Position numbers and translations under genes: made by a program. Under the pieces are notes generated by a model. That model had not been told where the DNA came from. It made no database searches and saw only the letters and a list, made by a program, of their open reading frames with translations. Shown piece after piece: positions 36,039-52,111 of a stretch of DNA of 64,000 nt (position 1 is the first letter of the stretch; every line of letters begins with the position of its first letter). This stretch comes from Candidatus Aminicenantes bacterium (GTDB lineage: Bacteria; Acidobacteriota; Aminicenantia; Aminicenantales; JAFGBC01). The stretch spans positions 3,040,001 to 3,104,000 of the forward strand of contig OY969696.1 of the NCBI GenBank assembly GCA_963702005.1. Direction: 5' to 3'.

Positions 36039-37099
36039 TGGACCTCATCCCTTAAAAATGGTCCGGACATGAAGAAGTACGGGGGGCTGGGCGTCTCGGA
36101 GCTGCGGCGGCTGAGGCAGCTTGAGGAGGAAAACCGGCAGCTCAAGCGCCTGGTGGCGGATTTAACGCTCGACAAGCCGATGCTCCAGGATGTCCTCTCC
36201 AAAAAATTCTGAAGCCAGCTCAGAGGCGGGAGCGAGTGGTTGCTCTCGAGGAGGCCTATTGGGTGAGCGAACGGCGGGCCTGCCGGGTCGTCGGGTTCTG
36301 CCGTTGACAGCCGTACGTCCCACCGGTATCGCTCGCACCGCAGAGACGACCGGGCCCTGCGGCAGCGGATCGTCGAGATCGCGGAGACGCGCGTTCGGTA
36401 CGGGTATCGGCGGGTCCATGTTCTGCTTCGGCGCGAGGGCTGGCGCGTCAATCATAAGCGGACCTATCGGATCTACTGCGAAGAGGGGCTTCACTTGAGG
36501 AGGAAACGACCTCGTCGACATGTCTCTGGAAGCCGGCGGATGGCGCGGCCGGAAGCTGACCGTCTCAACGCCTGCTGGAGCATGGACTTTGTCTCAGACA
36601 GCCTCTTTAACGGCCACCGGTTCCGGGCCTTAACGATAGTCGATAATTATAGTCAGGAGTATCTGGCCATCGAAGCCGGCCAGAGCATGACGGGCGCGGA
36701 AGTCGCGGCTGTCATCGAGCGGCTGGTGAAGGAGCGGGGCGCTCCGGACCGCATCCAATGCGACAACGGCAGCGAATTTATCTCAAGGGCATTGGATAAG
36801 TGGGCGTATGAAAACGGGGTCATGATGGACTTCTCAAGGCCCGGTAAGCCTATGGATAACGCGATGATCGAGTCGTTCAACGGTTCATTCCGGGACGAAT
36901 GCTTGAACGTCAATTGGTTCTTGTCGATGGAGGATGCCCGGGAGAAGATAGAGAAGTGGCGAATGGATTACAATGAGTTCCGGCCGCACAGTTCGCTCGG
37001 AGACTTGACGCCGAGGCAATTCGTTGATACATACAAGAGAAGCTTAAAAAGCCAAAAAACTCCATTTTTGGCTGGACCAGTTTTCGGGTGAGGCGCCCA
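36039..37099 (+). mobile_element. IS3-family element, defective copy 1
   Basis: IRL TGGACCTCATCCCTTAAAAATGGTCCGGACA; orfA 5' deleted; orfB DDE motifs WSMDF, DNGSEF and IESFNG; 10-bp insertion at 36305; matching IRR at 37069-37099. Confidence 0.92.
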
Positions 37100-39465: not shown

Positions 39466-39782
39466 AGAAAGCCTTCCTTGCCCTTGGCTATGATATCCTG
39501 CTATTTCGCGTCGAAAATCTCATCACGCCGCTTTTGGATAACTTATATCAAGGCTCAAAGCCTGTCAAGGACGGCTCGAGAGAACGGAGAGACGGCGATG
39601 ATGAAAGGCATTATTCAACTCCAGACTCCCCTTTAGGCGAATATAATTGCTTATTCCCGGCTGGTCTAGTAGCTTTATAGACTTCTCCCCATGTAACGCC
39701 GGTGTAACAGATTGTGCCTAATCTCGCTTAATCTTGGCTAATGGTGCTTAAAGGGATTCAGAGGAAAACAAGGAAAAAGGAG

Positions 39783-39855
39783 CGCGCCCGGCAAGATTCG
39801 AACTTGCGACCTTTGGATTCGAAGTCCATCGCTCTATCCACTGAGCTACGGGCGC
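39783..39855 (-). tRNA. tRNA-Arg(TCG)
   Basis: GCGCCCGTAGCTCAGTGGATAGAGCGATGGACTTCGAATCCAAAGGTCGCAAGTTCGAATCTTGCCGGGCGCG; full cloverleaf with A-A mismatch at the top of the anticodon stem. Confidence 0.93.
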
Positions 39856-39968: not shown

Positions 39969-41330
39969 TTAATACTTAATGGTCGCGTAGTCGTAATTGG
40001 TGCCTGAACCCCAACTCGTTCCGGCGACATAGATATGGCCCGAGCCGTCTACGGCAATGGCCTCTGCTTCATCCCTGCCCTTACCGGGCCCGTTGTACCT
40101 TTTTGCCCAGAGCTGGTTGCCGTTTGTGTTGTACTTAACGGTGGCGTAGTCGGTCCCGGTGTCTGAACCATAGCTATGTCCAGTGACATAGACATTGCCC
40201 GAGCCGTCCGCGGCAATAGCATATGCAGAGTCATAACCATTTCCTGGCCCGTTGTATCTCTTGACCCAGAGCTGTTTACCGCTTGTGTTGTACTTGATGG
40301 TGGCGTAGTCATAATCGGTACCTGAGCCTTTGCTCGTTCCGGTGACATAGACATTGCCCGAGCCGTCCACCGCAATGGCCGATGCGTCATCAGAGCCGTT
40401 ATCTGGCCCGTCATAGTTTTTTACCCAGAGCTGTTTGCCGTTTGGGCTGTACTTGATGGTGGCGTAGTCGTATGCAGTCCATGAACCCCAACACGTTCCG
40501 GTGACATAGACATTGCCCGAGCCGTCCACCGCAATGGCCTCTGCGTAATCATTGTTGTCTTCACTGTCACCGGGCCCGTTGTACCTTTTTGCCCAGAGCT
40601 GGTTTCCGTTTGTGTTGTACTTGATGGTGGCGTAGTCGGTCCCGGTGTCTGAACCATAGCCATGTCCAGTGACATAGACATTGCCCGAGCCGTCCACCGC
40701 AATCGCTGTTGCATCATCATAGTTATGACCCGGACCGTCGTACCTGCCGACCCAAAGCTGTTTTCCGTTTGTGTTGTACTTTATGGTGGCGTAGTCGTAA
40801 TCGGTGCCTGAACCCCGGCTATGTCCGGTGACATAAACATTGCCCGAAGCGTCCACTGCAATGGCCGATGCGTAATCTTCGCCGTTACCTGGACCGTTGT
40901 ACCTTTTTACCCAGAGCTGGTTGCCGTTTGGGCTGTACTTGATGGTGGCATAGTCGCGAACGAGGCTTGAGCCCGAGCTCGAACCGGTCACGTAGACATT
41001 CCCCGAACCGTCCGCGGCAATGGCCTCTGCGTAATCATACCAGTTACCTGGCCCGTTGTACCTTTTTACCCAGAGCTGTTTGCCGTTTGTGTTGTACTTG
41101 ATGGTGGCGTAGTCGTAATGAGTGCCTGAGCCCCAGCTATGTCCGGTGACATAGACATTGCCCAAGCGGTCCACCGCAAGCCCCGATATCCAATCTTCGC
41201 CGTTACCTGGCCCGTTATACCTCGCCACCCACTTCTCTTGTTGGGCAAGGCCGTGCGCCCTTCCCAAAGGAATCAACAAGGGGACACAAACAAGAATTGA
41301 ACTGATGGTGATCCAAACCCTCTTCTTCAT
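39969..41330 (-). CDS. Secreted SBBP-repeat beta-propeller protein
   Basis: Seven near-identical units AIAVDGSGNVYVTG...DYATIKY...GKQLWVKRYNGPG; signal peptide. Confidence 0.88.
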   Translation of the reverse strand: MKKRVWITISSILVCVPLLIPLGRAHGLAQQEKWVARYNGPGNGEDWISGLAVDRLGNVYVTGHSWGSGTHYDYATIKYNTNGKQLWVKRYNGPGNWYDYAEAIAADGSGNVYVTGSSSGSSLVRDYATIKYSPNGNQLWVKRYNGPGNGEDYASAIAVDASGNVYVTGHSRGSGTDYDYATIKYNTNGKQLWVGRYDGPGHNYDDATAIAVDGSGNVYVTGHGYGSDTGTDYATIKYNTNGNQLWAKRYNGPGDSEDNNDYAEAIAVDGSGNVYVTGTCWGSWTAYDYATIKYSPNGKQLWVKNYDGPDNGSDDASAIAVDGSGNVYVTGTSKGSGTDYDYATIKYNTSGKQLWVKRYNGPGNGYDSAYAIAADGSGNVYVTGHSYGSDTGTDYATVKYNTNGNQLWAKRYNGPGKGRDEAEAIAVDGSGHIYVAGTSWGSGTNYDYATIKY

Positions 41331-41668
41331 CTCACTCCTCCTTAAAGCCTCACCATTCTTTTATCCAGAAGGCATCGGCAGGACGCCTCTTGAGCTTGGC
41401 GGGCGAGTTGCCCCTTCAAGGGCGTGGTGAAAGGCCGTTCCGAGCGCTAAATCTCCCCTCCTGATCACGATAGTATAGTAATGCCGCCACATAGTTCTAT
41501 TCAAGTGACGAAAACTTGTGCAGAAAAAATTGACGGGATTAGTGACGTGTTCAAACGGAATTACCTAAGAATACCTAAGACTATTTAAGACAAATCAACG
41601 TTCTGATATTCAATGAATTAAGGCCATTTTCAGGGAAAAACAGGCTAAAGTGTCTTACAGCTTAGATC

Positions 41669-41709
41669 GGATTCGAAGTCCATCGCTCTATCCACTGAGC
41701 TACGGGCGC
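41669..41709 (-). other. tRNA-Arg(TCG) 5'-half duplicate (att scar)
   Basis: 41 nt identical to 39815-39855, ending just after the anticodon loop; TTGAGG-18 bp-TAAGAT promoter-like motif upstream. Confidence 0.9.
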
Positions 41710-41765
41710 ATCCAGGAGTACAATCTTATCTCATCTGGCCGAGCGACCTCAAGAGCGTCCTGATG

Positions 41766-41829
41766 GACCTGCCCCCGCTCAATATCCCACCTCTGAAGTG
41801 AGATTTTCGAGCGTTTGGGTGGCAGGTCA
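41766..41829. mobile_element. Miniature (~65 bp) IS3-end derivative
   Basis: GACCTGCC...GGCAGGTCA inverted ends; interior similar to 50739-50790. Confidence 0.65.
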
Positions 41830-41883
41830 GCAATTGTAATCCTTTTTTAATATTAATAATTTAGCGTGATTTCTCTTATCTAT

Positions 41884-42636
41884 TCATTTGGCGGCATGAA
41901 CCGCTATGACTTGTGGAATACGTTTTCTTTTTCCTCCCCCTGAAATCCTTATTGAACTAGAATCTTGAACAAGCTGATGAGCAATATAGAAACCATCAAT
42001 AATCGGCATAAAGAAAAGGGCACGGCCAAGAAGTCGTATCCTCTCCTCATGTTGAACGAGTTGAACTCCCCACGCATGATATGAATCGCCGGAATCTAAT
42101 AAAACGTACCCTCCAGATATCAACCGATCACAGATACGAATTGCTATCTCTGCATTAGTATTCGAGACCTCACAATGAAAATCTAAGAAATTTAGATGTC
42201 TATATTCACCAGATTTTATCTCAACTTTTGACTTTAAGCCTATCGAATACTGGCTATTTCTTTTCAATAGCTTACTAAGCTCGTGTTTCAATATTTTATC
42301 TCTCGTAATTTCAAGATCTTCACCTGACCCCTGATGATATAGCGCCGCGTCAAACAGGGCGTTATTAGATTGACCTTTTTTCAAACAGGTCAAGAATATA
42401 CTTTCCCAAAAAGGAATTCCCATCTCTTTTCTTGTCTTAAGAGCTTCGTTAATTATTTTCACCTCGAAAGTGCTCATTTTAATTCGCTCCTGTACGTTTG
42501 GAGGAGCCTTATAAAAACTTATTATGACTTTTTCTATCATTTCATTACAGCTTACCACTTTTTCAAATGCCTCAACTGCAGACATCCCTACCTTTATGCC
42601 CATATTCTGTATAGAGCTTCGCCTTGTTGCAGACAT
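41884..42636 (-). CDS. Minimal archaeo-eukaryotic primase (AEP)-like protein
   Basis: Candidate AEP motifs FLDFH (I), DSGDSYH (II) and IIDG (III); start 8 bp after the patatin stop. Confidence 0.6.
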   Translation of the reverse strand: MSATRRSSIQNMGIKVGMSAVEAFEKVVSCNEMIEKVIISFYKAPPNVQERIKMSTFEVKIINEALKTRKEMGIPFWESIFLTCLKKGQSNNALFDAALYHQGSGEDLEITRDKILKHELSKLLKRNSQYSIGLKSKVEIKSGEYRHLNFLDFHCEVSNTNAEIAIRICDRLISGGYVLLDSGDSYHAWGVQLVQHEERIRLLGRALFFMPIIDGFYIAHQLVQDSSSIRISGGGKRKRIPQVIAVHAAK

Positions 42637-42644
42637 GACCGATA

Positions 42645-44612
42645 TTATACAGGGCGTACTGCGCCCTCTATGCTTCGAAAACAATCATAATTAAACTCAT
42701 CCATTCTACGGCGAGGATCGAGGTGTCTAGTAGAAAGGATTGCTCTTCTTGGATCAATCGGTTTCCCGGGAAGATTTTCCTTTACTCCATCCACTATTAA
42801 ACAGCTTATCCGTTCAATTCCATTACGAAAACAATATAAAACGCGCGTATTGCCCTCAATGGCAATTTTATGTGTACCGTGTATCTCCACTACTGGCGGA
42901 GTTACTGTTGAAACCATATCGTTTCCTGAGAATACGCCCGCAACCTCAAACAAAGGAATACTTGATGACTTATAGCTTTCTACTAATAAAGCTATTTGTC
43001 TATACTTGTATGCACGAATGTATTGTGTGATAAGTTCGATATCAAATACCGATAATTCACCGAGTTCTATCCTAACATCTCTTGATGAATACTGGCCTAC
43101 ATTCCTCTTCAGTAAATCAATAATGCTATTTTCATTTAAAGGCCTCAAAGCTAATTTAAAAGGCGTTTTTTTTGAAAACATTCCTGAAAACTGATCACAT
43201 ACGGTAGCAATAATTTCTCTATGAATTGATCCTATATACGCTGTTGCCTTTGGCGCGTCTTCTGTTCCCCTATTATGAAAAACAATAGCAACATCTCTAT
43301 TATTGTCTTCGCGCCGAATAAAGTATCCGCTCATAAGAATATCTGGTTGCTCTTTCACTTCCACGCCCAGTGAAGTTAGGAGATTTCTTCTATGTTTTTC
43401 ACGAAGGGCCTTCTCGCCTGATATTGATATTGGTTTAACAATAACGTTCACTTTCGTGCCATTTGCAAGCCAACGATAAACGGAAGGAAATAACTTCCAA
43501 AACCATTCGGTGTCTGGTTCAACTATATATATTTCTTTTGAGGGTTCGATAGATGATCTAACCACAGTATCAAATAGCTCGTCTTTGTCCCAACAGGTTA
43601 TTTCATTGTTGGATGAGTTACGAATTTTCACATCCTCATTTTTTACAAAATCTTGCATAGCTTGATATCCAGAGGTACTTAAACGACTGATATCTTCAGA
43701 TGTAATTTTGTTAAAGTCTGTCGCACGGGTAGTCCCAGTAGGAATTGATACTACATGAACATCTCCTTTAATTGCTATTTGAAGTTCTGTAGCTCCAGAA
43801 ACAAGTGTTGTCACTAGCCTTTCTACGAATGAATTTATTGACCATTCCCAGTTTCTCGCCATTTCTTCTTCAAGCCTGAAAGCAAGAATCCGTCCCCCTA
43901 GTGATACTCCAGGCCTCTGGTCCGCATCAGCATAAACAAATGATGGAAGATTGCTCAGCATCCCCCCATCCACATAAAGATTTGTTCCCACGTGTACAGG
44001 CTGGAAATAAATTGGGATAGAACAAGAACATCGAACCGCAAGGCTCACACTCTCATTAGGAGTCTCTTCTGTTCCCCAAACCTTCGCCTTCCCTGCAACA
44101 AGATCTGTAGCAATGATTCTCGTCGGAATTAATAGATCTTTAAAAGTAATAGGCCCTGGGATAGAGGGGATTAATTTTGATAGAAGATCATCCATTAGTT
44201 TTTCTATTGGTTTTGAAGAATATATCCCTCCGTAAATGATTACTTTTCCAAATCCATCGATGAGTTTTATCTTCCTAAGTAAAAAGGATCTCAAAAAATG
44301 GGCAATTATTCTTATCCATAATCTTGATTCGAATTCATATTTCTCGGGCTTTGCGAGTAAACTTGAAAAACTCAAATTACTAATCGTATTTTTCAGAAGT
44401 TCTGGGGTTGCTCCCGCACCTACTAAAGCTGCCAAGATAGAACCGGCAGATGTTCCAGCGACCTCAGAGAAGTATATTCCACTTTTTATTGCAGCATCAT
44501 ATGCTCCGATATGAGCGGCAGCTCTGCATCCTCCGCCCTCGAATACACCTCGACAGGCATCAAAAAAAGCAGTTTTTGGAATATCATGAAGCGAACTATT
44601 ATTCTTTGGCAT
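42645..44612 (-). CDS. Patatin-like phospholipase fused to PLD/TrmB-like and ParB/Srx-like domains
   Basis: EGGGCR, GTSAG and VDGG patatin motifs; C-terminal PPVV...IEGNTR ParB-like motif; AT-rich. Confidence is high for patatin and moderate for the other domains. Confidence 0.82.
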   Translation of the reverse strand: MPKNNSSLHDIPKTAFFDACRGVFEGGGCRAAAHIGAYDAAIKSGIYFSEVAGTSAGSILAALVGAGATPELLKNTISNLSFSSLLAKPEKYEFESRLWIRIIAHFLRSFLLRKIKLIDGFGKVIIYGGIYSSKPIEKLMDDLLSKLIPSIPGPITFKDLLIPTRIIATDLVAGKAKVWGTEETPNESVSLAVRCSCSIPIYFQPVHVGTNLYVDGGMLSNLPSFVYADADQRPGVSLGGRILAFRLEEEMARNWEWSINSFVERLVTTLVSGATELQIAIKGDVHVVSIPTGTTRATDFNKITSEDISRLSTSGYQAMQDFVKNEDVKIRNSSNNEITCWDKDELFDTVVRSSIEPSKEIYIVEPDTEWFWKLFPSVYRWLANGTKVNVIVKPISISGEKALREKHRRNLLTSLGVEVKEQPDILMSGYFIRREDNNRDVAIVFHNRGTEDAPKATAYIGSIHREIIATVCDQFSGMFSKKTPFKLALRPLNENSIIDLLKRNVGQYSSRDVRIELGELSVFDIELITQYIRAYKYRQIALLVESYKSSSIPLFEVAGVFSGNDMVSTVTPPVVEIHGTHKIAIEGNTRVLYCFRNGIERISCLIVDGVKENLPGKPIDPRRAILSTRHLDPRRRMDEFNYDCFRSIEGAVRPV

Positions 44613-44708
44613 TATATCCCCCAACCATATAACCTTACTTTGAATTTTTAGCATGAAATTGAAAATAAATCAATCATTGTTCAAACTTCTAATAATATGA
44701 TCATTTTA

Positions 44709-45936
44709 AGGACCTCATCCCTTAAAAATGGTCCGGACATAATGTGAGTTTTCTGGCAAAATCTCTGGGAGGAGGTTTTGCCGATGAAGAAGTCGAAGTT
44801 CACGGAGGAGCAGATCGCGTTTGCGCTCCGCCAAGCCGAGACTGGGACACCGGTGGCAGAAGTTTGCCGGAAGATGGGGATCTCGGAGATGACGTTTTTC
44901 CGGTGGAAGAAGAAGTACGGAGGCCTCGGAGTTTCGGAGCTCCGTCGCTTGAGGCAGCTCGAGGAGGAAAACCGCCGGCTCAAGCGCATGGTGGCGGATC
45001 TGAGCCTCGAAAAACAGATGCTCTAGGATGTGCTCTCAAAAAAATTCTAAAGCCAGCTCAGAGGCGGGAGCGAGTGGTTGCTCTCGAGGAGGCCTATTGG
45101 GTGAGCGAACGGCGGGCCTGCCGGGTCTTCGGGTTCTGCCGTTGACAGCCGTACGTCCCACCGGTATCGCTCGCACCGCAGAGACGACCGGGCCCTGCGG
45201 CAGCGGATCGTCGAGATCGCGGAGACGCGCGTTCGGTACGGGTATCGGCGGGTCCATGTTCTGCTTCGGCGCGAGGGCTGGCGCGTCAATCACAAGCGGA
45301 CCTATCGGATCTACTGCCAGGAGGGGCTTAATCTAAGAAGGAAACGCCCTCGTCGTCATGTCTCCGGAAGCCGGCGGATGGAACGGCCGGAGGTCGAGCG
45401 TCCGAACGCCTGCTGGAGCATGGATTTTGTCGTCGACAGCTTCTTTAACGGCCACCGATTCCGGGCCTTAACGATAGTCGATAATTATAGTCGGGAGTGT
45501 CTGGCCATCGAAGCCGGCCAAAGCATGACGGGCGCGGAAGTCGCGGCTGTCATCGAGCGGCTGGTGAAGGAGCGGGGCGCTCCGGACCGCATCCAATGCG
45601 ACAACGGCAGCGAATTTATCTCAAGAGCCTTGGACAAGTGGGCGTATGAAAACGGGGTCATGATGGACTTCTCAAGGCCCGGTAAGCCTATGGATAACGC
45701 GATGATCGAGTCGTTCAACGGTTCATTCCGGGACGAATGCTTGAACGTCAATTGGTTCTTGTCGATGGAGGATGCCCGGGAGAAGATAGAGAAGTGGCGA
45801 ATGGATTACAATGAGTTCCGGCCGCACAGTTCGCTCGGAGACTTGACGCCGAGGCAATTCGTTGATACATACAAGAGAAGCTTAAAAAGCCAAAAAACTC
45901 CATTTTTGGCTGGACCAGTTCTGGGGTGCGGCTCCC
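44709..45936 (+). mobile_element. IS3-family element, defective copy 2
   Basis: Same IRL as copy 1; orfA MKKSKFTEEQI with premature TAG at 45024; A7 slippery site; same 10-bp insertion in orfB at 45143; IRR about 45907-45936. Confidence 0.93.
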
Positions 45937-46199
45937 TGGGTCGGGCACTGGTCCGCGGGAGACGCCTTCGATTCGTCGCTTTCCCCGGACGAGGAACTCT
46001 TCGGCCCGGACGCCTTCGAGGGGGAGGCATACTGTGCCCATGCGCACGCGTGGCCCCTCTACTGCTACTACCGGCTGCGTGAAGCGCGCTGACGGCGGTC
46101 GGCCTGCGAGGCCCGTCTCGCGGGCACGGTGGGAGGCCGTCACCGTCGAGACCGGTCTCCGGGCTTGCATATCGCGTGTTGTCGCGGATTACGTGTGCG

Positions 46200-47249
46200 T
46201 TATTCCTTGGTCGTGATTTTCGTCGCGAAGTCGAAGCGTCCGGCTTCTCGCCCGGCCAGTGCACCCAGGGCAAGCGTAATCATCTGAACCGGAAGAATTT
46301 CAAGAATCGGTTGTACGGCAATGGGAAGATCCGGCAACACACATGGAGAAATATTTGATCGATGACTTACCAATTCGGCTTTCCCACCGTGCTCCCGAAT
46401 GTCCTCCAACAGACTCTCGTTAAGCTTCTGCGCTTTACGATCGCCCCCAAAAATGAGCACAAATGTTTCCTTGCTGAGCATCTCCAGCGGGCCATGGCGA
46501 AATGCAGCGCTGCTCAGGCCTTCTGCCGCAAAGTGTGCCGACTCTTTCACGATCAGCGCGCCAGTGCCAACGGCGGACAGAGAATTGCCGCGTCCCACAA
46601 AAAACAGGTGGCGGACCGCTTCGAGCAAGCCCGCAAACTGCTCCGCATAGCCGCGCCAATGAGATAGATACTCGTCCACCTCTTGGGCAGCACACTGCAG
46701 TTCCTTGCGGCTTTTTCGCAGGTCCCGGTTGGCAATTACATCTGCTAGCCACTGCAAAGCCATTAGGCTGGACATGTACGTCTTACAGGAAACAGAAAAC
46801 TCGACTCCCGCGCGCGTTAGAATCAGAGCCTCCGCATTTCTTGCCAACGGGCTGTCTTGTGTATTGGTCACGGCGATCACGGGAGCCTTGCCCCGATTCA
46901 CGCGCAACAGCCGGACAATCTCCACGCTCTGTCCCGATTGCGAAACGGCCACCACAAGATTTTTGGAGTCAAAGAGTCGGCTCTTGTAATGCACCAGCTC
47001 CGAGGTTTCCACCATGAACGCAGAAAGACCCAGCTGAATCAGTTGGTTGTGTAAAGGATGAAGAGCATGAAAGGAAGAGCCCATGCCGGTCAGGACGATC
47101 GATTTAAAGCGCCCTTTGTAGATTCGCCCAGCAAGAGACTGAAGGGGTTTCGATTCTTCGAGGCTTGCTAGGGTGTCGAACAGCGCCTGAGGTTGCGCAA
47201 GAATGTCTCGCAGATACTGGCCTTCGGTAATTGTGAACTCACTGGGCAT
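46200..47249 (-). CDS. SIS-domain sugar-phosphate isomerase/deaminase (GlmS-like)
   Basis: TGMGSS, SQSGQS, TNTQDSPL and FRHGPLE motifs. Confidence 0.88.
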   Translation of the reverse strand: MPSEFTITEGQYLRDILAQPQALFDTLASLEESKPLQSLAGRIYKGRFKSIVLTGMGSSFHALHPLHNQLIQLGLSAFMVETSELVHYKSRLFDSKNLVVAVSQSGQSVEIVRLLRVNRGKAPVIAVTNTQDSPLARNAEALILTRAGVEFSVSCKTYMSSLMALQWLADVIANRDLRKSRKELQCAAQEVDEYLSHWRGYAEQFAGLLEAVRHLFFVGRGNSLSAVGTGALIVKESAHFAAEGLSSAAFRHGPLEMLSKETFVLIFGGDRKAQKLNESLLEDIREHGGKAELVSHRSNISPCVLPDLPIAVQPILEILPVQMITLALGALAGREAGRFDFATKITTKE

Positions 47250-48183
47250 GAGGCTCTCCTGTCGGAGCGAAGCGGTGATACCAGACGCGAGCCGCGCCGA
47301 TAAGGTTGGCGTGCTCGCCGAGCGAGGCTAAAGCTATTTCCGTTTTTTCGTGAGGAACGTAGCGGCAACTGGCAGCAATAATCCCCCGAATATTATCGAG
47401 AAACAGATCGGCGCTCTTCATCACACTGCCGCCCAGAACAATCGCGTCTGGCACATACAGCGTAACGAGGTTCGCCACTCCCAACCCCAGATAGCGTCCT
47501 TCGTTTTCGACAGCACGCAGCGCCCACTCATCTCCGGTGCGCGCAAGGTCGCAGATTTTCTTCGCACTCAACTCCGTTCGGTGAACGTACTCGTGTGGGG
47601 CATTGCGCTGGATCCAGCTCACCATAGCCGGTCCAGCCGCCAGAGACTCCCAGCAGCCACGGAATCCACATTCGCAAACAGGGCCGGAAGCGTCAATCAG
47701 GTGATGCCCGATTTCCGGATGCGATTGGTTGACTCCTCGATACACCCGGCCGTCGAAGATAAGCCCAACTCCTATCCCGGTGCCGACGGTCACGTAAATG
47801 AGGTGCGATTTGTTGCGCCCTGCTCCCCAACCGGCTTCACCAAGGGCGGCGGCGTCCGCATCGTTTTCAATCGCGACGTCAACCTTAAATTGATTGTGAA
47901 GATCGCGAACCGGGTTTTCACCGCGCCAATCTGGAAAGAAATTTACATCGCCAATCTCTCCCGTCAGCGGGTAAATCGGGCCTGTGGAGCCGATGCCGAT
48001 TCCGGAAATACGCTCTCCCGTCGACAACTCAATCTTTCGCAGCAAGGAGATTACCCGTTCAATTGCAGCCTTGTATCCGGACTTCGCATCTGTGGGGGTC
48101 TCAAATCGTTCCAGTATTCGGCCGTTGGAATCAACGCCACCAACGGCAATCTTCGTGCCGCCTATATCAACCCCCGCAATCAT
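47239..48183 (-). CDS. ROK family sugar kinase
   Basis: GVDIGGTK, ENDADAAALGE, GTGIG, EIGH and CECGFRGCWE motifs. Confidence 0.92.
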   Translation of the reverse strand: MIAGVDIGGTKIAVGGVDSNGRILERFETPTDAKSGYKAAIERVISLLRKIELSTGERISGIGIGSTGPIYPLTGEIGDVNFFPDWRGENPVRDLHNQFKVDVAIENDADAAALGEAGWGAGRNKSHLIYVTVGTGIGVGLIFDGRVYRGVNQSHPEIGHHLIDASGPVCECGFRGCWESLAAGPAMVSWIQRNAPHEYVHRTELSAKKICDLARTGDEWALRAVENEGRYLGLGVANLVTLYVPDAIVLGGSVMKSADLFLDNIRGIIAASCRYVPHEKTEIALASLGEHANLIGAARVWYHRFAPTGEPHAQ

Positions 48184-48217
48184 CGAAAACGCTCCGTGCC
48201 GCGAATTGGCCTGAACA

Positions 48218-50392
48218 TTACTGTTTCCATTCGAAAATCACGGCATCAAATGGTTCAAGCCTGCTCTTCCAGGTGGAAGATTGCAGTTGCAGCGAAGTTG
48301 GCACAGTACCGGTAACCGTAGAAACGGAGCGCAAGTTCAGCGAGGACGTAACAGAAAATTCCTGGGCTTTGGCGCTGTGGTTGATCGCAACTATATACCC
48401 GCGATGATCACCACTTAACACCGACAATTCTATCTCCGGGCAATCCGCCTTAAACGCTGGCTTCCTGCCCGTCCAATCGCGAAAGGCCCCGTACAGCCGA
48501 TACGTTTCTTCCGGTTTGTCAAACACTGCAGGCGTTTCCGCCAGATAGTGTTCCAGAGGATAAGCGCTCAACAAAGTCTTACCGGAACCAATTTGATTCG
48601 TAACCAGCGCCGGATGACCGTCCTGATCTACCGCAATCACCTTGCCCGTGCTCACTTCCAATATTGTTCCCCAGGATTGGATCGACGAAGACGGCAACGA
48701 GTAATGAAGTGTGTCTCCCGGTTTAAAATCGCCGAACGGCTCAACAAATTTCAAGGTCACTTCCGAAGTAATCGCACGGTCCACCATCCGCGCCCCAAAC
48801 AACGAATCCATCTGTGGAACCGCTCCGTCGGCAGCCAAGGAGGCATATAGAAACCCGCCATTATCTACGTACTTCTGCGCCTTCTCATAAAAATCGCTGT
48901 GCACATGCGTCAGAAAAGGGTCACCGGTACTCGTCACCGGCGAGGGGAGAAAAATCATCGCGTGCTTGCCCCAATCGGAATACTCTCGCGGGAAATCCGC
49001 TTTCAACCCTGCGCGCCGCCCCAGCACGAACGAGGAAAGCGCCGATCCCATCAGCCAATGATTCCCGGAGTTGCCGTCTGGCTGTGTTTTTCCAGGAATT
49101 GCGTCCCCATCTGCGATTGAAAGATACGGCGTTACCTCCGGGCCGGTCAGCCCGAAGTGCGAGAAATCTCCATGTGTCTTTGCCCATTCATTCGGGATGA
49201 TGATGCCGATGTCAGCAGTTGCCGGTGAAAGTCCGCTCAGATCGAGCTGCCCAACTACCTTCGCAAATTTCTTGAACTCTCGAGCCAGTGGCTTGTCTTG
49301 CCGGTCCCACGTAGTCATTCCCCATCCGGTTTCCTGCGGCGTGCGCAGATACGGCACCTTATGAAATTGTTCCGGCGAAGCATCCGTATAACACCACAGG
49401 TCAACCCCGATACTTCCCGCACCGAGCCCGGAATATATTTGCGCCCGGTCATATGCCGCCACTCGCTCAGGCGAAAACTGCGCCGTCGACGCGCCCATTT
49501 CGTGAATCATCACCGGCCGTCCCGCTCCTTGGGATAGGGCGATCTCAAATGCGGCTCCGTATGTTCCTCGCGCAGATAGGAGTGCGTCCGGGAATAAATC
49601 CGTAACGTATAACGTAAATGGATGAACACTAAAGAAATCCACCGAACTCGCGATCGTGTCCGCTCGGAACGGACCGTGTGTCACTTCCTGCCCGCTTGTT
49701 CCCACCACGAGCGGGTGCATCTTGTCGTGTTTTCGAATCCCATCCGCAATCAGCCGCGTCCAGTTAATCGCCATGGCATCCGTCGTCTGCCCGTCCACGA
49801 TCCAGAACGGTGGTTCATCAGTGAGGTCCCACGCGATAATTCCAGTCTCATTGCCATACCGCCGACCGAACTCTTCTGCGAAATTCGTTTCCAGTCGCAA
49901 CATCTCCGGATCAGCATGCGGATGCCGTCCATGCCGCCACGGAACATCCCAATACGCCTCTCCAACTTCACCACCGATGAACAAGCTGGGATGTAAATAG
50001 ATTTTGTATTTGTGCGCAAGCGAAACGAGATAGTCCAGCTGTTGAAACGCCACTGGATTGTAATCGCCGGGCCGCGGCTCGAACCACGCCCACATCACAT
50101 CAAACCGCGCAACGCTGTAGCCAAGTTCATGCATCTTTGCGAAATCCGCTTCGATGTCCTTGGGATCCCACTGCACTGGCCATTGCATCGCCGCCTTTGC
50201 GGGCACCCAATGTGCGCCAACGGGCAGGAAGCGTTTCCCATCGGCGGAAAAATATGTGCCATCAAGATGAACTTGCGGCAGCTTGGCGGTTGCTTGCGCC
50301 TTTGCATTTTGCGCTGTGGCCGTCAAAGCAGAGGCGAACAGCGCACATGCGGCCAGGAAGCCATTGAGCCATGCATGATGGTTTCGGTTCAT
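48218..50392 (-). CDS. Secreted clan GH-A glycoside hydrolase (GH5/GH42-like) with C-terminal accessory domains
   Basis: Signal peptide; WAWFEPRPG, WDLTDEP (acid/base) and IHEMG (nucleophile). Confidence 0.75.
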   Translation of the reverse strand: MNRNHHAWLNGFLAACALFASALTATAQNAKAQATAKLPQVHLDGTYFSADGKRFLPVGAHWVPAKAAMQWPVQWDPKDIEADFAKMHELGYSVARFDVMWAWFEPRPGDYNPVAFQQLDYLVSLAHKYKIYLHPSLFIGGEVGEAYWDVPWRHGRHPHADPEMLRLETNFAEEFGRRYGNETGIIAWDLTDEPPFWIVDGQTTDAMAINWTRLIADGIRKHDKMHPLVVGTSGQEVTHGPFRADTIASSVDFFSVHPFTLYVTDLFPDALLSARGTYGAAFEIALSQGAGRPVMIHEMGASTAQFSPERVAAYDRAQIYSGLGAGSIGVDLWCYTDASPEQFHKVPYLRTPQETGWGMTTWDRQDKPLAREFKKFAKVVGQLDLSGLSPATADIGIIIPNEWAKTHGDFSHFGLTGPEVTPYLSIADGDAIPGKTQPDGNSGNHWLMGSALSSFVLGRRAGLKADFPREYSDWGKHAMIFLPSPVTSTGDPFLTHVHSDFYEKAQKYVDNGGFLYASLAADGAVPQMDSLFGARMVDRAITSEVTLKFVEPFGDFKPGDTLHYSLPSSSIQSWGTILEVSTGKVIAVDQDGHPALVTNQIGSGKTLLSAYPLEHYLAETPAVFDKPEETYRLYGAFRDWTGRKPAFKADCPEIELSVLSGDHRGYIVAINHSAKAQEFSVTSSLNLRSVSTVTGTVPTSLQLQSSTWKSRLEPFDAVIFEWKQ

Positions 50393-50456
50393 TTGAAATC
50401 TCCAAGAGGAAAACTGCAAATACTTCCCTCAGAATTTAAATCGCACGGCGATCTGC

Positions 50457-50738
50457 TCAGGCGACGCCGAGACGCGCGAGCCGCGTCTCGAGGTCGGCAC
50501 GCAGCCGTTCTTCCGCGTCGCGGCGGACTATCGACGTGCGCCCCTCGTAGCCACCCTCGTCGAGCATCGCGGCCGTCGGCAGATACTCGATCGACCCGCC
50601 GGTGAGGCTTACGGTTACGAGGTCGAGCTTCGGGTGGGCTGCACGCAAGGCCGCCGTCGTTTCGTACGGGATCTCCGTGTGCATGAAGGCGAGCGTCGCC
50701 CCCCCACCAAGGGCCAGCACGGCGAGGGGCAGCTCCAC
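50457..50738 (-). pseudogene. C-terminal fragment of a hypothetical (ceramidase-like) protein truncated by an IS end
   Basis: YLPTAAMLDEGGYE motif; very GC-rich; coding signal begins exactly at the IS terminus at 50739. Confidence 0.55.
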
Positions 50739-50790
50739 TGACCTGCCCCCATTCAATGTACCACCTCTAAAGTGAGATTTTCAAGCATTG
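50739..50790 (-). mobile_element. IS3-family right-end fragment
   Basis: TGACCTGCCCCCATTCAATGTACCACC, similar to 34494 and 41766. Confidence 0.7.
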
Positions 50791-50839
50791 AGGTGCTCCC
50801 GTCTCATGCAGAAGCCCATGCTTCATAGGGCTGCTTTTT

Positions 50840-51091
50840 CCACTGTGTCACTTTTGTGTCACCTATTTGCATTATTCCATGCAAACAATACAAACGGCGG
50901 GAACAGTACGAACCGCCCCGTTTCTACGTAAGTCGCTAATTCTTCAGTAAGTAGCTGACAATACCGGGCTTAGTCGAAAAAGCCCATTTTTCTTCCTGGA
51001 GGATTTTAAGTCCCTCCTCGGGAAGCCGGAAACCGTTTAAAAAGAGGCGTTTTCAGTTGACGGCCTCCGGCCAGGGACGATTCAGGGACGA
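50840..51091. other. att junction: TGTGTCAC arm, tRNA-Leu(TAA) anticodon-like core (51001-51015), CAGGGACGA arm
   Basis: Minus-strand AGGGACTTAAAATCC; tandem arm-type repeats on both sides; abuts the integrase 3' end. Confidence 0.7.
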
Positions 51092-52111
51092 AGCGGAGTC
51101 GTAGTTCAGCAGCTCGATTTCGTGCGCCATGAAATCCGGCGCAAGATGGGCGTAGCGGAGCGTCATGCTGATGGTTGAATGCCCGAGAATCCGCTGGAGC
51201 GAGATGATGTTGCCGCCCTTGGCGACGAAGTTGCTGGCAAATGTGTGCCTGAGATCGTGAAACCGGATTTTTCGTAATCCCGCGCTTTCAGCCGCTTTCC
51301 TCATCTCCGACCTGAAGTCGATGGTATGCATGCGTCCCTTTTCGTCGGGGAACACGTGCTCGCTATCGCCACACTTCAGGCATTCGCGAAGGATGGGAAG
51401 CAGCCGGGAATTGATGGGCACGTATCTCAGGCGCTTGCTCTTCGTTGAGCCGCTGCCGCTCCTTTCAACCCGAATCATCCTCCTTTCGAGGTCCACGTCT
51501 ATCCGTCTGAGGCCGACGATTTCGCCGACTCTCATGCCGGTATAGACAGCAGTGCTGGCGATGGGCAGGAAGTCGGGCGGACAATTGCGAAGGAAAAGCG
51601 CTACCTCATCCTCGCTGTAGTAGTCGAATCCCTTCTGGGGCTCGCGGAGCTGCTGGACCTGCTTCATCGGGCTGGCCGACAGGAATCCCCACCTGACCGC
51701 GTCGTTGAACATCTTGCGGAGAATCGCGAGCGTCCTGTTGATGGTCGCGGGCCGAATCAACAGCTCCCTGCTCTTCTTGTACTCGTCGACCATGCGCGGC
51801 GTGATGTAGCTGGCTTCCCTGTCGCCGAAATACGGAATCAGGTGCTTCGCAAGCCGCTCCCCGTTCTTCCGGTACTGGGACGGAGCATTGGAGACTTTCG
51901 AATAGTTTTCGAGCCAGTACCGGGCAAGCTGCCCGAAGGTCATCTTCCTTTTGACCGGGATGTCGAACCGGTCGTGAAAGATGTCCGCCTCAAACTTCCG
52001 GAGGGCTTCCATCGCTTCCCTCTTGGACCTCCCTACCATTCTCTTGTGCCTCTCGCCTCTGATAACGAAATTGACGTACCACTTTCCGTTATGCCTGAAA
52101 ATGGTAGCCAT
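51053..52111 (-). CDS. int: Tyrosine recombinase/integrase
   Basis: TGMRVGE, TKSK, FHDLRHTFAS and LGHST..MT.RYAHL motifs. Confidence 0.96.
   Translation of the reverse strand: MATIFRHNGKWYVNFVIRGERHKRMVGRSKREAMEALRKFEADIFHDRFDIPVKRKMTFGQLARYWLENYSKVSNAPSQYRKNGERLAKHLIPYFGDREASYITPRMVDEYKKSRELLIRPATINRTLAILRKMFNDAVRWGFLSASPMKQVQQLREPQKGFDYYSEDEVALFLRNCPPDFLPIASTAVYTGMRVGEIVGLRRIDVDLERRMIRVERSGSGSTKSKRLRYVPINSRLLPILRECLKCGDSEHVFPDEKGRMHTIDFRSEMRKAAESAGLRKIRFHDLRHTFASNFVAKGGNIISLQRILGHSTISMTLRYAHLAPDFMAHEIELLNYDSASSLNRPWPEAVN

Follow-up and report, generated by a model that had tools for sequence, protein, structure and literature searches.

A patatin phospholipase fused to inactive HKD and ParB/Srx-like domains and a minimal AEP-like enzyme form a conserved two-gene cassette resembling a rare anti-virus system

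A window of 64,000 nucleotides from the genome of a Candidatus Aminicenantes bacterium (contig OY969696.1, positions 3,040,001 to 3,104,000) contains two adjacent genes, one encoding a patatin phospholipase, presumably membrane-attacking, fused to two putative domains for the sensing of nucleotides or nucleic acids (gene 1) and the other a minimal AEP-like enzyme (gene 2). The pair is a conserved cassette: a gene 1 homologue is located directly upstream of gene 2 in 26 of the 27 testable loci, which are distributed over several phyla, and the adjacency that the initial annotation had proposed as a check is thereby established. The pair looks like a rare and unstudied bacterial anti-virus system. 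On balance it is probable that the cassette is a self-contained, mobile anti-phage pair of the abortive-infection type, in which a ligand made by gene 2 and read by the iHKD-ParB module of gene 1 gates the lipase.

Gene 1 (42645..44654, minus strand) is followed by gene 2 (41884..42636, minus strand), with a gap of 8 bp between the stop codon of the former and the ATG of the latter at 42636. The longest ORF of gene 1 encodes 669 amino acids, but translation probably begins at the ATG at 44612, which gives a protein of 655 amino acids matching the database form P0029. This ATG is also where the region described in the initial annotation ends. Gene 2 (250 amino acids) is contained within an ORF spanning 41884-42684 on the minus strand, and a shorter database form of 233 amino acids is disfavoured because G17 is invariant in the family alignment. 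The GC content of the operon is 37-41%, whereas it is 54-60% in the surrounding regions (40000-41500 and 45000-52000), so the tight coupling and the marked AT-richness noted at the outset both hold. An IS3-family element with orfA (HTH_Tnp_1, 44778-45026) and orfB (rve, 45378-46082) abuts the upstream side of the operon (44710..46100, plus strand, ends approximate), and sequence comparison identified a second, internally deleted copy with 94% identity in the same orientation (36040..37098, plus strand). A low-GC block from 37.1 to 44.7 kb is bracketed by these two copies. Downstream of gene 2, at a distance of 175 bp, lies a 41-nt stretch (41669..41709) that copies the 5' half of tRNA-Arg(TCG) without a mismatch, the parent gene being found at 39782-39855; the tRNA att scar suspected in the initial annotation is hence confirmed. 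The same annotation had the operon bounded by an IS3 copy and a mini-IS, of which the IS3 stands and the mini-IS is not supported; the spacer at 41331-41883 contains short dispersed repeats that are present elsewhere in the genome too. A scan of 41600-44900 for promoters and terminators gave promoter-like sites that were no commoner than in shuffled sequences, and nothing usefully placed. The foreign base composition, the IS3 copies and the repeated tRNA fragment suggest that the two-gene cassette has been acquired horizontally.

Gene 1 had initially been read as an intact patatin catalytic set followed by a PLD/TrmB-type fold without an HxK motif and a ParB/Srx-like tail, and each of these parts is upheld by the evidence below. 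The patatin phospholipase domain comprises residues 37-237 (43944..44546, minus strand) and matches Pfam PF01734 with an E-value of 7e-31 (108.3 bits, cut-off 27.7). Patatins are defined by a Ser-Asp dyad in GxSxG and DG[GA], combined with a Gly-rich oxyanion loop. The dyad and the loop can be read directly in gene 1, as the oxyanion loop G40GGCR44, the nucleophile S69 within G67TSAG71 and D229 within D229GG. This motif set is kept across 37 homologues, at least 90% of which share G67, D229 and G231 in the family alignment.

The middle domain, at approximately residues 348-495 (43170..43613, minus strand), matches the ‘inactive HKD’ (iHKD) family PF24402 at 27.8 bits, the cut-off being 27. Its PLD fold is evident from structural matches to Nuc (Z 12.2, rmsd 3.0 over 131 amino acids), SauUSI (12.2), TrmBL2 (11.9) and BfiI (11.5), and Foldseek retrieved PPK1, TrmB and SauUSI with E-values of 5e-6 to 2e-5. 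Alignment of 37 sequences revealed no conserved His-x-Lys, and thus no catalytic HxK(x)4D, in this domain; the invariant residues are instead W395, R422, G430 and Y473. The C-terminal domain, at approximately residues 509-662 (42669..43130, minus strand), was delimited by structural matches and invariant columns. It is most similar to Atu1540 (Z 7.2) and to the Arabidopsis sulfiredoxin (Z 7.0, rmsd 2.2 over 83 amino acids, 19% identity), followed by SerK (6.8), PadC (5.7) and KorB (5.2), with SbnI and the pNOB8 ParB also matched. Eight members of the ParB/Srx family match the tail at Z 4.9-7.2, values that are middling, yet consistent and spanning the whole domain. Invariant in the family alignment are P587, V588 and E590 (PPV.E) and E600, G601, T603 and R604 (EGNTR). 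No Pfam model matched residues 500-669, and a sequence search of the PDB with the profile of the gene 1 module family returned 0 matches. The tail is accordingly a predicted ParB/Srx fold, assigned from middling Z scores with no sequence-profile match.

The AEP-like nature first ascribed to gene 2 is likewise borne out. Pfam PF24387 (AEP-like) matches with an E-value of 9e-23 (81 bits, cut-off 27), and the best 17 structural matches of the AF2 model (pLDDT 90) are all AEP domains (Z 10.2-6.2), among them RepB' (10.2), the S-2L PrimPol (9.3) and PriS (8.4-8.6). Foldseek gave an AEP probability of 0.99, although with an E-value of only 3e-3. The catalytic motifs of AEPs are defined as DxD/E (motif I), SGxGxH (motif II) and hD (motif III). 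In gene 2, the conserved motifs are II (S182-G-D-S-Y-H187) and III (D214), and motif I reads D152-F-H154. In an alignment of 27 family sequences, LDFHC, DSGDSYHA and P..D are invariant, the conserved residues being D152, S182-G-x-S-Y-H187, D214, H220 and R230. Throughout the wider PF24387 family, D152 is the sole invariant acidic residue of motif I and the second position (H154 here) varies, which renders classical two-metal primase chemistry uncertain for gene 2. Judged by its profile match and modelled fold, gene 2 is a complete but minimal AEP catalytic domain. The invariant motif residues and the full AEP fold are as expected of an enzyme or a ligand binder under selection, and gene 2 is presumably catalytically active.

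A total of 29 loci with gene 2 were found. In 24 of these, gene 2 is directly preceded by a full gene 1 homologue in the same orientation; two have the C-terminal end of gene 1 at a contig edge and two lack upstream DNA. At the 10 junctions with compared ORF calls (L001, L005, L007, L008, L009, L010, L011, L012, L015 and L028, among 15 loci listed), the gap or overlap between the two genes is at most 11 nt. The pair is kept even in locus L043, where identity falls to 30% for gene 2 and 28-48% for the parts of gene 1, and locus G634, which was found from the gene 1 side, carries an AEP-like partner too. By a heuristic of contig coincidence only, 25 gene 1-type database proteins have a longest contig of the same length as that of an AEP-like protein, and by the same heuristic no coincidence was seen for divergent gene 1 homologues (E above 3e-63). 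One divergent locus examined, on a Kovacikia plasmid, has an unrelated 262-amino-acid gene upstream of the gene 1 homologue. As divergent branches of gene 1 showed no AEP-like partner in these comparisons, this partner belongs to one clade rather than to the whole module family. The possibility that the Kovacikia 262-amino-acid protein is a diverged AEP was considered and rejected (hhalign probability 0.13%). This protein exhibits a GG...D.D pattern, which we take to be that of Pol-beta nucleotidyltransferases, the MNT fold, and may possibly be of Pol-beta nature. The cassette is rare and patchy: in four phylum samples of 401 genomes each, it is present in 2, 2, 0 and 1 genomes, respectively. 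Among IMG/VR viral contigs, gene 2 matches a single contig carrying the pair, with glycosyltransferases and unknown genes as neighbours and no phage-like surroundings; a search of viral contigs with the gene 1 module profile found nothing, and PHROGs gave no meaningful match for the pair.

A larger protein family (587 representatives at E<=1e-3) shares the iHKD-ParB module as its constant element, and relatives within it swap the patatin head for a CAP12/Pycsar-type TIR, a PNP nucleosidase or DUF4062. Among 32 module-bearing proteins, which were selected for atypical length, 10 carry a CAP12/Pycsar TIR, seven a patatin, one PNP_UDP_1 and one DUF4062, and iHKD was matched in 25 of the 32. For the TIR, PNP and DUF4062 variants, the heuristic above reveals no AEP-like protein on a coinciding contig. 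Relatives of gene 2 occur in other settings as well. Two of them close effector operons that are likewise centred on nucleotides, in keeping with a signalling role: one lies behind an HD+HD_assoc (dGTPase-like) gene adjoining an MmeI-type methylase, and the other is the last gene of a SIR2 - DprA/SLOG - PRTase operon on a Mycolicibacterium plasmid. One distant member is located between the repair genes uvrB and ruvA, in a housekeeping context.

The neighbours of the pair at some loci are related to defence, and comprise type I/II/III methylases, RE_TdeIII, a CBASS cyclase, a dGTPase, PIN_12 and HNH_5, as well as HepT/MNT/Cas6. Most of the 95 neighbouring ORFs at 14 loci are housekeeping genes, so that an enrichment in defence islands is not demonstrated statistically; KsgA-type and enoyl-reductase genes are among those immediately upstream of the pair. 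At the loci examined, the pair is not accompanied by genes for replication, partition or transfer. A defence reading is supported by the swapping of effectors on a constant iHKD-ParB module, by the rare and patchy distribution and by the defence genes found next to some of the pairs, and a role of the cassette in defence is therefore what we infer.

In the preferred scheme, the patatin phospholipase of gene 1 would be the killing effector, and the iHKD (a catalytically dead PLD fold) and ParB/Srx (an NTP-binding fold) domains would together make up the constant module, acting as regulator or receptor. The obligate enzymatic partner would be gene 2, a minimal nucleotidyl-transferase of the AEP family. 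We infer that its product is most likely a ligand derived from nucleotides, which could be a small nucleotide or a short oligonucleotide, and that binding of this ligand by the iHKD-ParB module would switch the lipase on or off. A related proposal had been drawn from the architecture in the initial annotation, namely that the AEP-like enzyme might replace the CD-NTase and that its signal might be sensed or degraded by the PLD-like/ParB domains. A wider and more tentative extension, rather unlikely at present, is that the single-Asp AEP-like proteins (PF24387) represent a new class of immune signal synthases outside Pol-beta, the messenger being read by a dead-PLD plus ParB/Srx receptor, and that the same family serves the HD-dGTPase-like and SIR2/SLOG/PRTase effector operons.

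Three other explanations may be considered. The patatin fusion could be a constitutive toxin that is held off by the AEP-like protein until interference by a phage with gene 2 or its product releases the lipase, as in a guard or toxin-antitoxin system. The tight, translationally coupled two-gene operon fits such stoichiometric control. The scheme is nevertheless unlikely, as the sequence data do not tell repression from activation, no antitoxin-like DNA-binding domain is present and the size and conservation of gene 2 are those of an enzyme. Two routes for gene 2 would be conceivable under it, likewise with a low probability: continuous synthesis of an inhibitory oligonucleotide, or nucleotidylation or binding of the ParB/iHKD module. 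Both have precedents, since the Hailong nucleotidyltransferase continuously makes an inhibitory oligonucleotide and MNT nucleotidylates HepT. The atypical single-Asp motif I is compatible with a nucleotidyl transfer other than that of primases, and the alternative partner of the Kovacikia homologue, with its presumed MNT-type pattern, points in the same direction at the motif level.

The AEP-like protein might also be a direct sensor rather than a messenger synthase, and prime on invading DNA that is single-stranded or undergoing replication. The primer-template would then be bound by the iHKD domain and the ParB-like clamp, which would trigger the lipase locally and with no diffusible signal. 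The closest folds agree with this idea, those of gene 2 being RepB' and S-2L PrimPol, primases from plasmid and phage, and those of the iHKD domain Nuc, SauUSI, BfiI and TrmBL2, PLD members that bind or cut DNA; ParB-family proteins, moreover, are NTP-gated DNA clamps. However, all 250 amino acids of gene 2 form the catalytic domain, leaving no zinc-finger, PriCT or helicase module for template recognition, and the same iHKD-ParB module drives TIR and PNP heads, which are ligand-gated in known systems. Such direct sensing is thus considered quite improbable. Least probable of all is a non-immune function in a mobile element or in housekeeping, for example a remodelling of lipids tied to the DNA repair or replication of the element. 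The distant AEP-like gene in the uvrB-ruvA context, the many housekeeping neighbours and the solitary IMG/VR contig could be taken in its favour, but the exchange of patatin, TIR, PNP and DUF4062 heads is difficult to reconcile with a housekeeping role, and the scarcity of the pair (0-2 per 401 genomes in each phylum sample), the foreign composition of the operon and the lack of accompanying replication, partition and transfer genes all argue against it.

If the ligand-gated scheme is correct, a primase-fold partner of ligand-gated effectors would be an enzyme class new to immune signalling, as the iHKD plus ParB/Srx combination would be a new type of receptor in this field, in which the enzymes of CBASS, Pycsar, Thoeris, type III CRISPR and Hailong are of the Pol-beta/CD-NTase, cyclase, TIR or Cas10 types. 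It would also provide a first function for two Pfam families presently without one, and PF24387, if read as a family of signal synthases, would be a general signalling hub parallel to the CD-NTases. Should the AEP-like protein not be a signal synthase, the pair would still be a conserved, uncharacterised lipase-based conflict module. With two genes in 2.8 kb, clear catalytic residues and natural effector swaps, the cassette is directly testable.

In PADLOC-DB v2.0.0 (2023) and NCBIfam (June 2026), no named system was matched by both genes and gene 2 had no match, while gene 1 obtained patatin-domain matches only, all below curated cut-offs, including generic phospholipase-effector matches in PADLOC (E 2e-10). 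No description of the pair was found in the main texts of openly licensed papers, and an earlier description is possible. Within this scope the view in the initial annotation that the pair is not a named system is sustained. Both the iHKD and the AEP-like domains have been seen by curators, since Pfam already holds models of them, and a paper on ParA systems names a TIR-iHKD gene in passing (bioRxiv 10.64898/2026.10.19.760177).

Compared with the AEP/PrimPol superfamily, gene 2 superposes as a whole on RepB', the S-2L PrimPol, PriS and LigD-Pol (Z 10.2-6.5, 144-157 residues) and shares motif II (SGxSYH) and motif III (D214). It differs in its size of only 250 amino acids, in lacking a helicase, PriCT or Zn-binding partner domain, in a motif I with a single family-wide Asp (D-F-H here) and in sharing its operon with effectors instead of replication genes. 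Effector fusions with ParB/Srx-type NTP-switch domains are known from GmrSD (DUF262), BrxU and SspE. In these, too, one polypeptide joins a toxic effector to a domain of ParB/Srx fold that has a [DE]-G-x-x-R loop. In gene 1, however, the ParB/Srx domain is C-terminal, follows a dead PLD domain and matches no ParB Pfam model; the effector to which it is joined is a lipase and not a nuclease, and an AEP-like gene accompanies the fusion.

CBASS with CapV combines a CD-NTase and a cGAMP-activated patatin phospholipase, and the cassette follows the same two-gene logic, with an enzyme of nucleotidyl-transferase type beside a patatin lipase. The TIR and PNP effector heads employed by CBASS and Pycsar recur in the module relatives, as CAP12/Pycsar TIR and PNP nucleosidase. 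Nevertheless, no cyclase model of SMODS or PADLOC matches either gene; the operon thus lacks a SMODS or Pol-beta cyclase, and the fold of gene 2 is that of an AEP. With 29.9 bits for the NCBIfam model CBASS_lipase, the cut-off of which is 200, gene 1 is not equivalent to CapV, from which the iHKD and ParB/Srx receptor part is absent. In Hailong, an oligo-DNA made by a nucleotidyltransferase gates the effector. The likeness is one of concept, and presupposes the putative gene 2 product: a small polymerase-type enzyme whose oligonucleotide would control a membrane-damaging effector. The components are different, gene 2 being an AEP and not a Pol-beta enzyme, the effector a patatin where Hailong has an ion channel, and the receptors dissimilar. 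A ligand-gated lipase of the kind proposed would thus operate on the principle of CBASS, Pycsar and Hailong, although neither its synthase nor its receptor is related to theirs.

The two genes of the cassette are read head to tail from the minus strand, gene 1 (42645-44654) as an ORF of at most 669 aa and gene 2 (ORF 41884-42684) from ATG 42636 as a protein of 250 aa, 8 bp after the gene 1 stop. The database form of the gene 1 protein (P0029, 655 aa) begins at ATG 44612, also the end coordinate in the initial annotation, and that of gene 2 (P0001, 233 aa) is probably too short, since a glycine at residue 17 is invariant in the family alignment. With 37-41% GC against 54-60% in the flanks (40000-41500 and 45000-52000), this is the coupled, AT-rich operon that the initial annotation described.

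Gene 1 carries a Patatin domain (Pfam, residues 37-237, E 7e-31) whose lipase motifs, G40GGCR44, G67TSAG71 and D229GG, are conserved in 37 homologues. It is followed by a match to PF24402 (‘iHKD, inactive HKD-REase’, residues 384-462) at 27.8 bits against the Pfam cut-off of 27. In a fold prediction for residues 345-669 (18-row alignment, pLDDT 82.7), the first half resembles PLD-superfamily and TrmB structures, both by Foldseek (PPK1 5e-6, TrmB 1.6e-5, SauUSI 2e-5) and by VIA-align (Z 12.2 for Nuc and SauUSI, 11.9 for TrmBL2, 11.5 for BfiI). The 37-homologue alignment shows no conserved His-x-Lys here, in line with the ‘inactive’ label of Pfam. Residues ~509-662 matched ParB/Srx-fold proteins only (VIA-align), among them Atu1540 (Z 7.2), Arabidopsis sulfiredoxin (7.0; rmsd 2.2 over 83 residues), human sulfiredoxin (6.0), the serine kinases SerK (6.8) and SbnI (5.8), PadC (5.7), KorB (5.2) and pNOB8 ParB (4.9); these Z values are middling, but the matches agree with one another. 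By sequence profile (Pfam; PDB sequence search with a profile) the tail reached no ParB family. Its invariant residues, P587, V588 and E590 together with E600, G601, T603 and R604, make up the loop that had been singled out initially. The intact patatin catalytic set, the PLD/TrmB-type fold devoid of HxK and the ParB/Srx-like tail first read from the sequence are all borne out, the last by fold. At one locus (L011, 3277-5233) two ORFs in different frames, of 488 and 153 aa, make up the gene 1 homologue, which is a frameshifted pseudogene or else has been misassembled.

Gene 2 matches PF24387 (‘AEP-like, archaeo-eukaryotic primase 1D-like’; Pfam, E 9e-23), and Foldseek on its AlphaFold model (pLDDT 90) places AEP domains at the top, with a probability of 0.99 and an E of only 3e-3. 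In a structure search independent of Foldseek, the best 17 rows are 17 AEP structures, including RepB' (Z 10.2, rmsd 3.1, 150 aa), S-2L PrimPol (9.3) and archaeal/eukaryotic PriS (8.4-8.6), and, lower, HP0184 (8.3), LigD-Pol (7.4) and CAPP (6.5). Since these matches cover residues 18-250, gene 2 is a single bare AEP catalytic domain, free of helicase, PriCT or zinc module, as the earlier reading of an AEP-like enzyme with no helicase partner had it. The motifs LDFHC, DSGDSYHA and P..D..Y..HQL.Q..SS.R.S.GG are invariant in the clade of paired genes. When the more distant PF24387 members recovered in this analysis are aligned with gene 2, invariance is limited to D152, S182-G-x-S-x-H187, H220, R230 and a few other positions, with D214 nearly invariant, and H154, D181 and D184 prove clade-specific; at a guess, the ‘1D’ of the Pfam name may refer to the single conserved acid of motif I.

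Searches with the gene 2 family gave 29 loci, of which 3 come from reference genomes, 25 from metagenomes and 1 from IMG/VR, some of them near-duplicates (L016 of L015; L023-L025 of L022), and the gene 1 partner was tested at each by local tblastn. A gene 1 homologue lies upstream in 26 of 27 testable loci, with all three parts directly upstream on the same strand at 24 and the C-terminal end at a contig edge at two (L020, L027); gene 1 is absent from one (L029), and two others (L003, L017) have no upstream DNA. The genes overlap or lie at most 11 nt apart (10 junctions compared, of 15 loci listed), and the order holds even in L043, whose pair is the most distant, with 30% identity for gene 2 and 28-48% for the parts of gene 1. 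The adjacency, for which a search of homologue pairs had been proposed, is thus conserved down to about 30% identity. An AEP-like gene also adjoins in G634, a genome found from the gene 1 module, and 25 gene-1-type database proteins match an AEP-like protein by the heuristic of an equal-sized longest contig, all among the closer rows (E<=3e-63); the same heuristic gave no coincidence for the more divergent rows.

The cassette is mobile and rare. PF24387 is matched in 2/401 genomes of the window's own phylum, and the module profile in 2/401, 0/401 and 1/401 genomes from the phyla of, respectively, a Nitrospira MAG (L002, G402), a Pyrinomonadaceae MAG (L003, G403; here a contig end truncates the copy of the seed genome itself) and a UBA1386 MAG (L001, G401). 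Named sources also include a Deltaproteobacteria MAG, Steroidobacteraceae, Mucilaginibacter and Lysobacter. The gene immediately upstream is sometimes plain housekeeping (e.g. KsgA-like, enoyl reductase), which means that the cassette inserts by itself. Most of 95 neighbouring ORFs at 14 loci are housekeeping genes; also present are RE_TdeIII, type I/II/III methylases, a CBASS cyclase, dGTPase, mad2/mad3, PIN_12, HNH_5 and RadC. In the window, the IS3-family element noticed initially (44710-46100; orfA, HTH_Tnp_1, 44778-45026; orfB, rve, 45378-46082) lies upstream of gene 1, and a second, internally deleted copy of the same orientation (94% identical) lies at 36040-37098. Together they flank a lower-GC block (37.1-44.7 kb) with a GH10-like 743-aa gene, a tRNA-Arg gene, an SBBP beta-propeller gene and the cassette, a composite-transposon-like layout. 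The presumed att scar corresponds to a perfect 41-nt copy (41669-41709) of the 5' half of tRNA-Arg(TCG) (39782-39855), downstream of gene 2. This half (41-45 nt, 95-100% identity) recurs in the same genome at ~3146357, 3150272, 3153645, 1792570 and 2367910, where the copies represent additional tRNA-Arg genes or else scars left by repeated integration. Between the tRNA gene and its duplicate, the SBBP gene (39969-41330, minus strand, 453 aa) consists of seven 159-nt tandem units with 62-78% identity to the reference copy. The ‘mini-IS’ reported beside the operon was not substantiated as an IS-like element, the spacer holding short repeats also present elsewhere in the genome. Two of these (~55-65 nt; 41420-41486 and 41766-41821) have counterparts that adjoin each other at 2898398-2898522 of the genome, so that a ~125-nt dispersed element appears split here by ~280 bp including the tRNA fragment.

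Among 1.84 billion cluster representatives, the iHKD-ParB module profile finds 587 with E<=1e-3, of which 209 reach E<=1e-30, and the N-terminal lengths of module-bearing proteins vary. Among 32 family members chosen for atypical length, 25 match iHKD, ten a CAP12/Pycsar-type TIR, seven patatin, and one each PNP_UDP_1, DUF4062 and, weakly, a cyclase. This variety shows a constant module with an exchangeable effector head, as is typical of ligand-gated immune effectors. The AEP-like family likewise has other associations. A second kind of pairing is found at L039 (7494-9538, minus strand, G328), where an AEP-like gene coding for 204 aa (PF24387, E 1e-30) shares 4 nt with an HD+HD_assoc (dGTPase-like) gene, with a 219-aa protein of no assigned family and a 970-aa MmeI/Eco57I-type methylase upstream. 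A third is the operon of Mycolicibacterium chubuense plasmid pMYCCH.01 (L044, 2416-6360, plus strand), in which SIR2_2, DprA/SLOG and an annotated amidophosphoribosyltransferase precede the AEP-like gene (E 1e-47), adjoined by an integrase and IS256. The distant gene at L029 (5848-6462, plus strand; 29% identity, PF24387 E 6e-30) lies on a 158-kb contig with a divergent uvrB on one side and ruvA on the other, and this branch may serve repair rather than immunity. On Kovacikia minuta plasmid pA (L045, 3115-5906, plus strand), a patatin-iHKD homologue (668 aa, 28% identical) has no AEP-like neighbour; it is overlapped by an upstream 262-aa gene and followed by MNT/HepT and Cas6 genes. The 262-aa protein has neither a Pfam match nor profile similarity to gene 2, and shows a GG...D.D pattern that we take to be reminiscent of Pol-beta nucleotidyltransferases.

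An intact lipase, a constant dead-PLD and ParB/Srx module, a conserved AEP-fold partner, exchangeable effectors and a rare, mobile distribution together tip the balance slightly towards a defence cassette, one rival being a non-immune role. Of the initial annotation, the domains and the pairing are upheld, while the signal synthesis, sensing and gating that it proposed are inferred from the architecture. Gene 2 would produce a nucleotide-derived ligand, the iHKD-ParB module would read it, and this reading would gate the patatin lipase and lead to abortive infection, a scheme that we hold only tentatively and regard as rather improbable in full. The sequence fits CBASS-like activation and equally a lipase switched by release of repression, in a Hailong-like or TA-like manner; it also accommodates both a diffusible messenger and a primer-template product acting in place as the trigger.

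Gene 2 has no model in PADLOC v2.0.0 or NCBIfam (June 2026), where gene 1 obtains generic patatin matches only, and no description of the pair was found in the full text, supplementary files apart, of openly licensed papers; within this coverage the pairing is, as first supposed, not a named system. Pfam models exist for both unusual domains, so that curators have met both. The cassette is not a CBASS, as it lacks the SMODS cyclase and its gene 1 is not equivalent to CapV. Judged from sequence, it would belong to the effector plus nucleotidyl-transferase type of conflict system, with a putative function, and its new parts would be the enzyme fold and the receptor.
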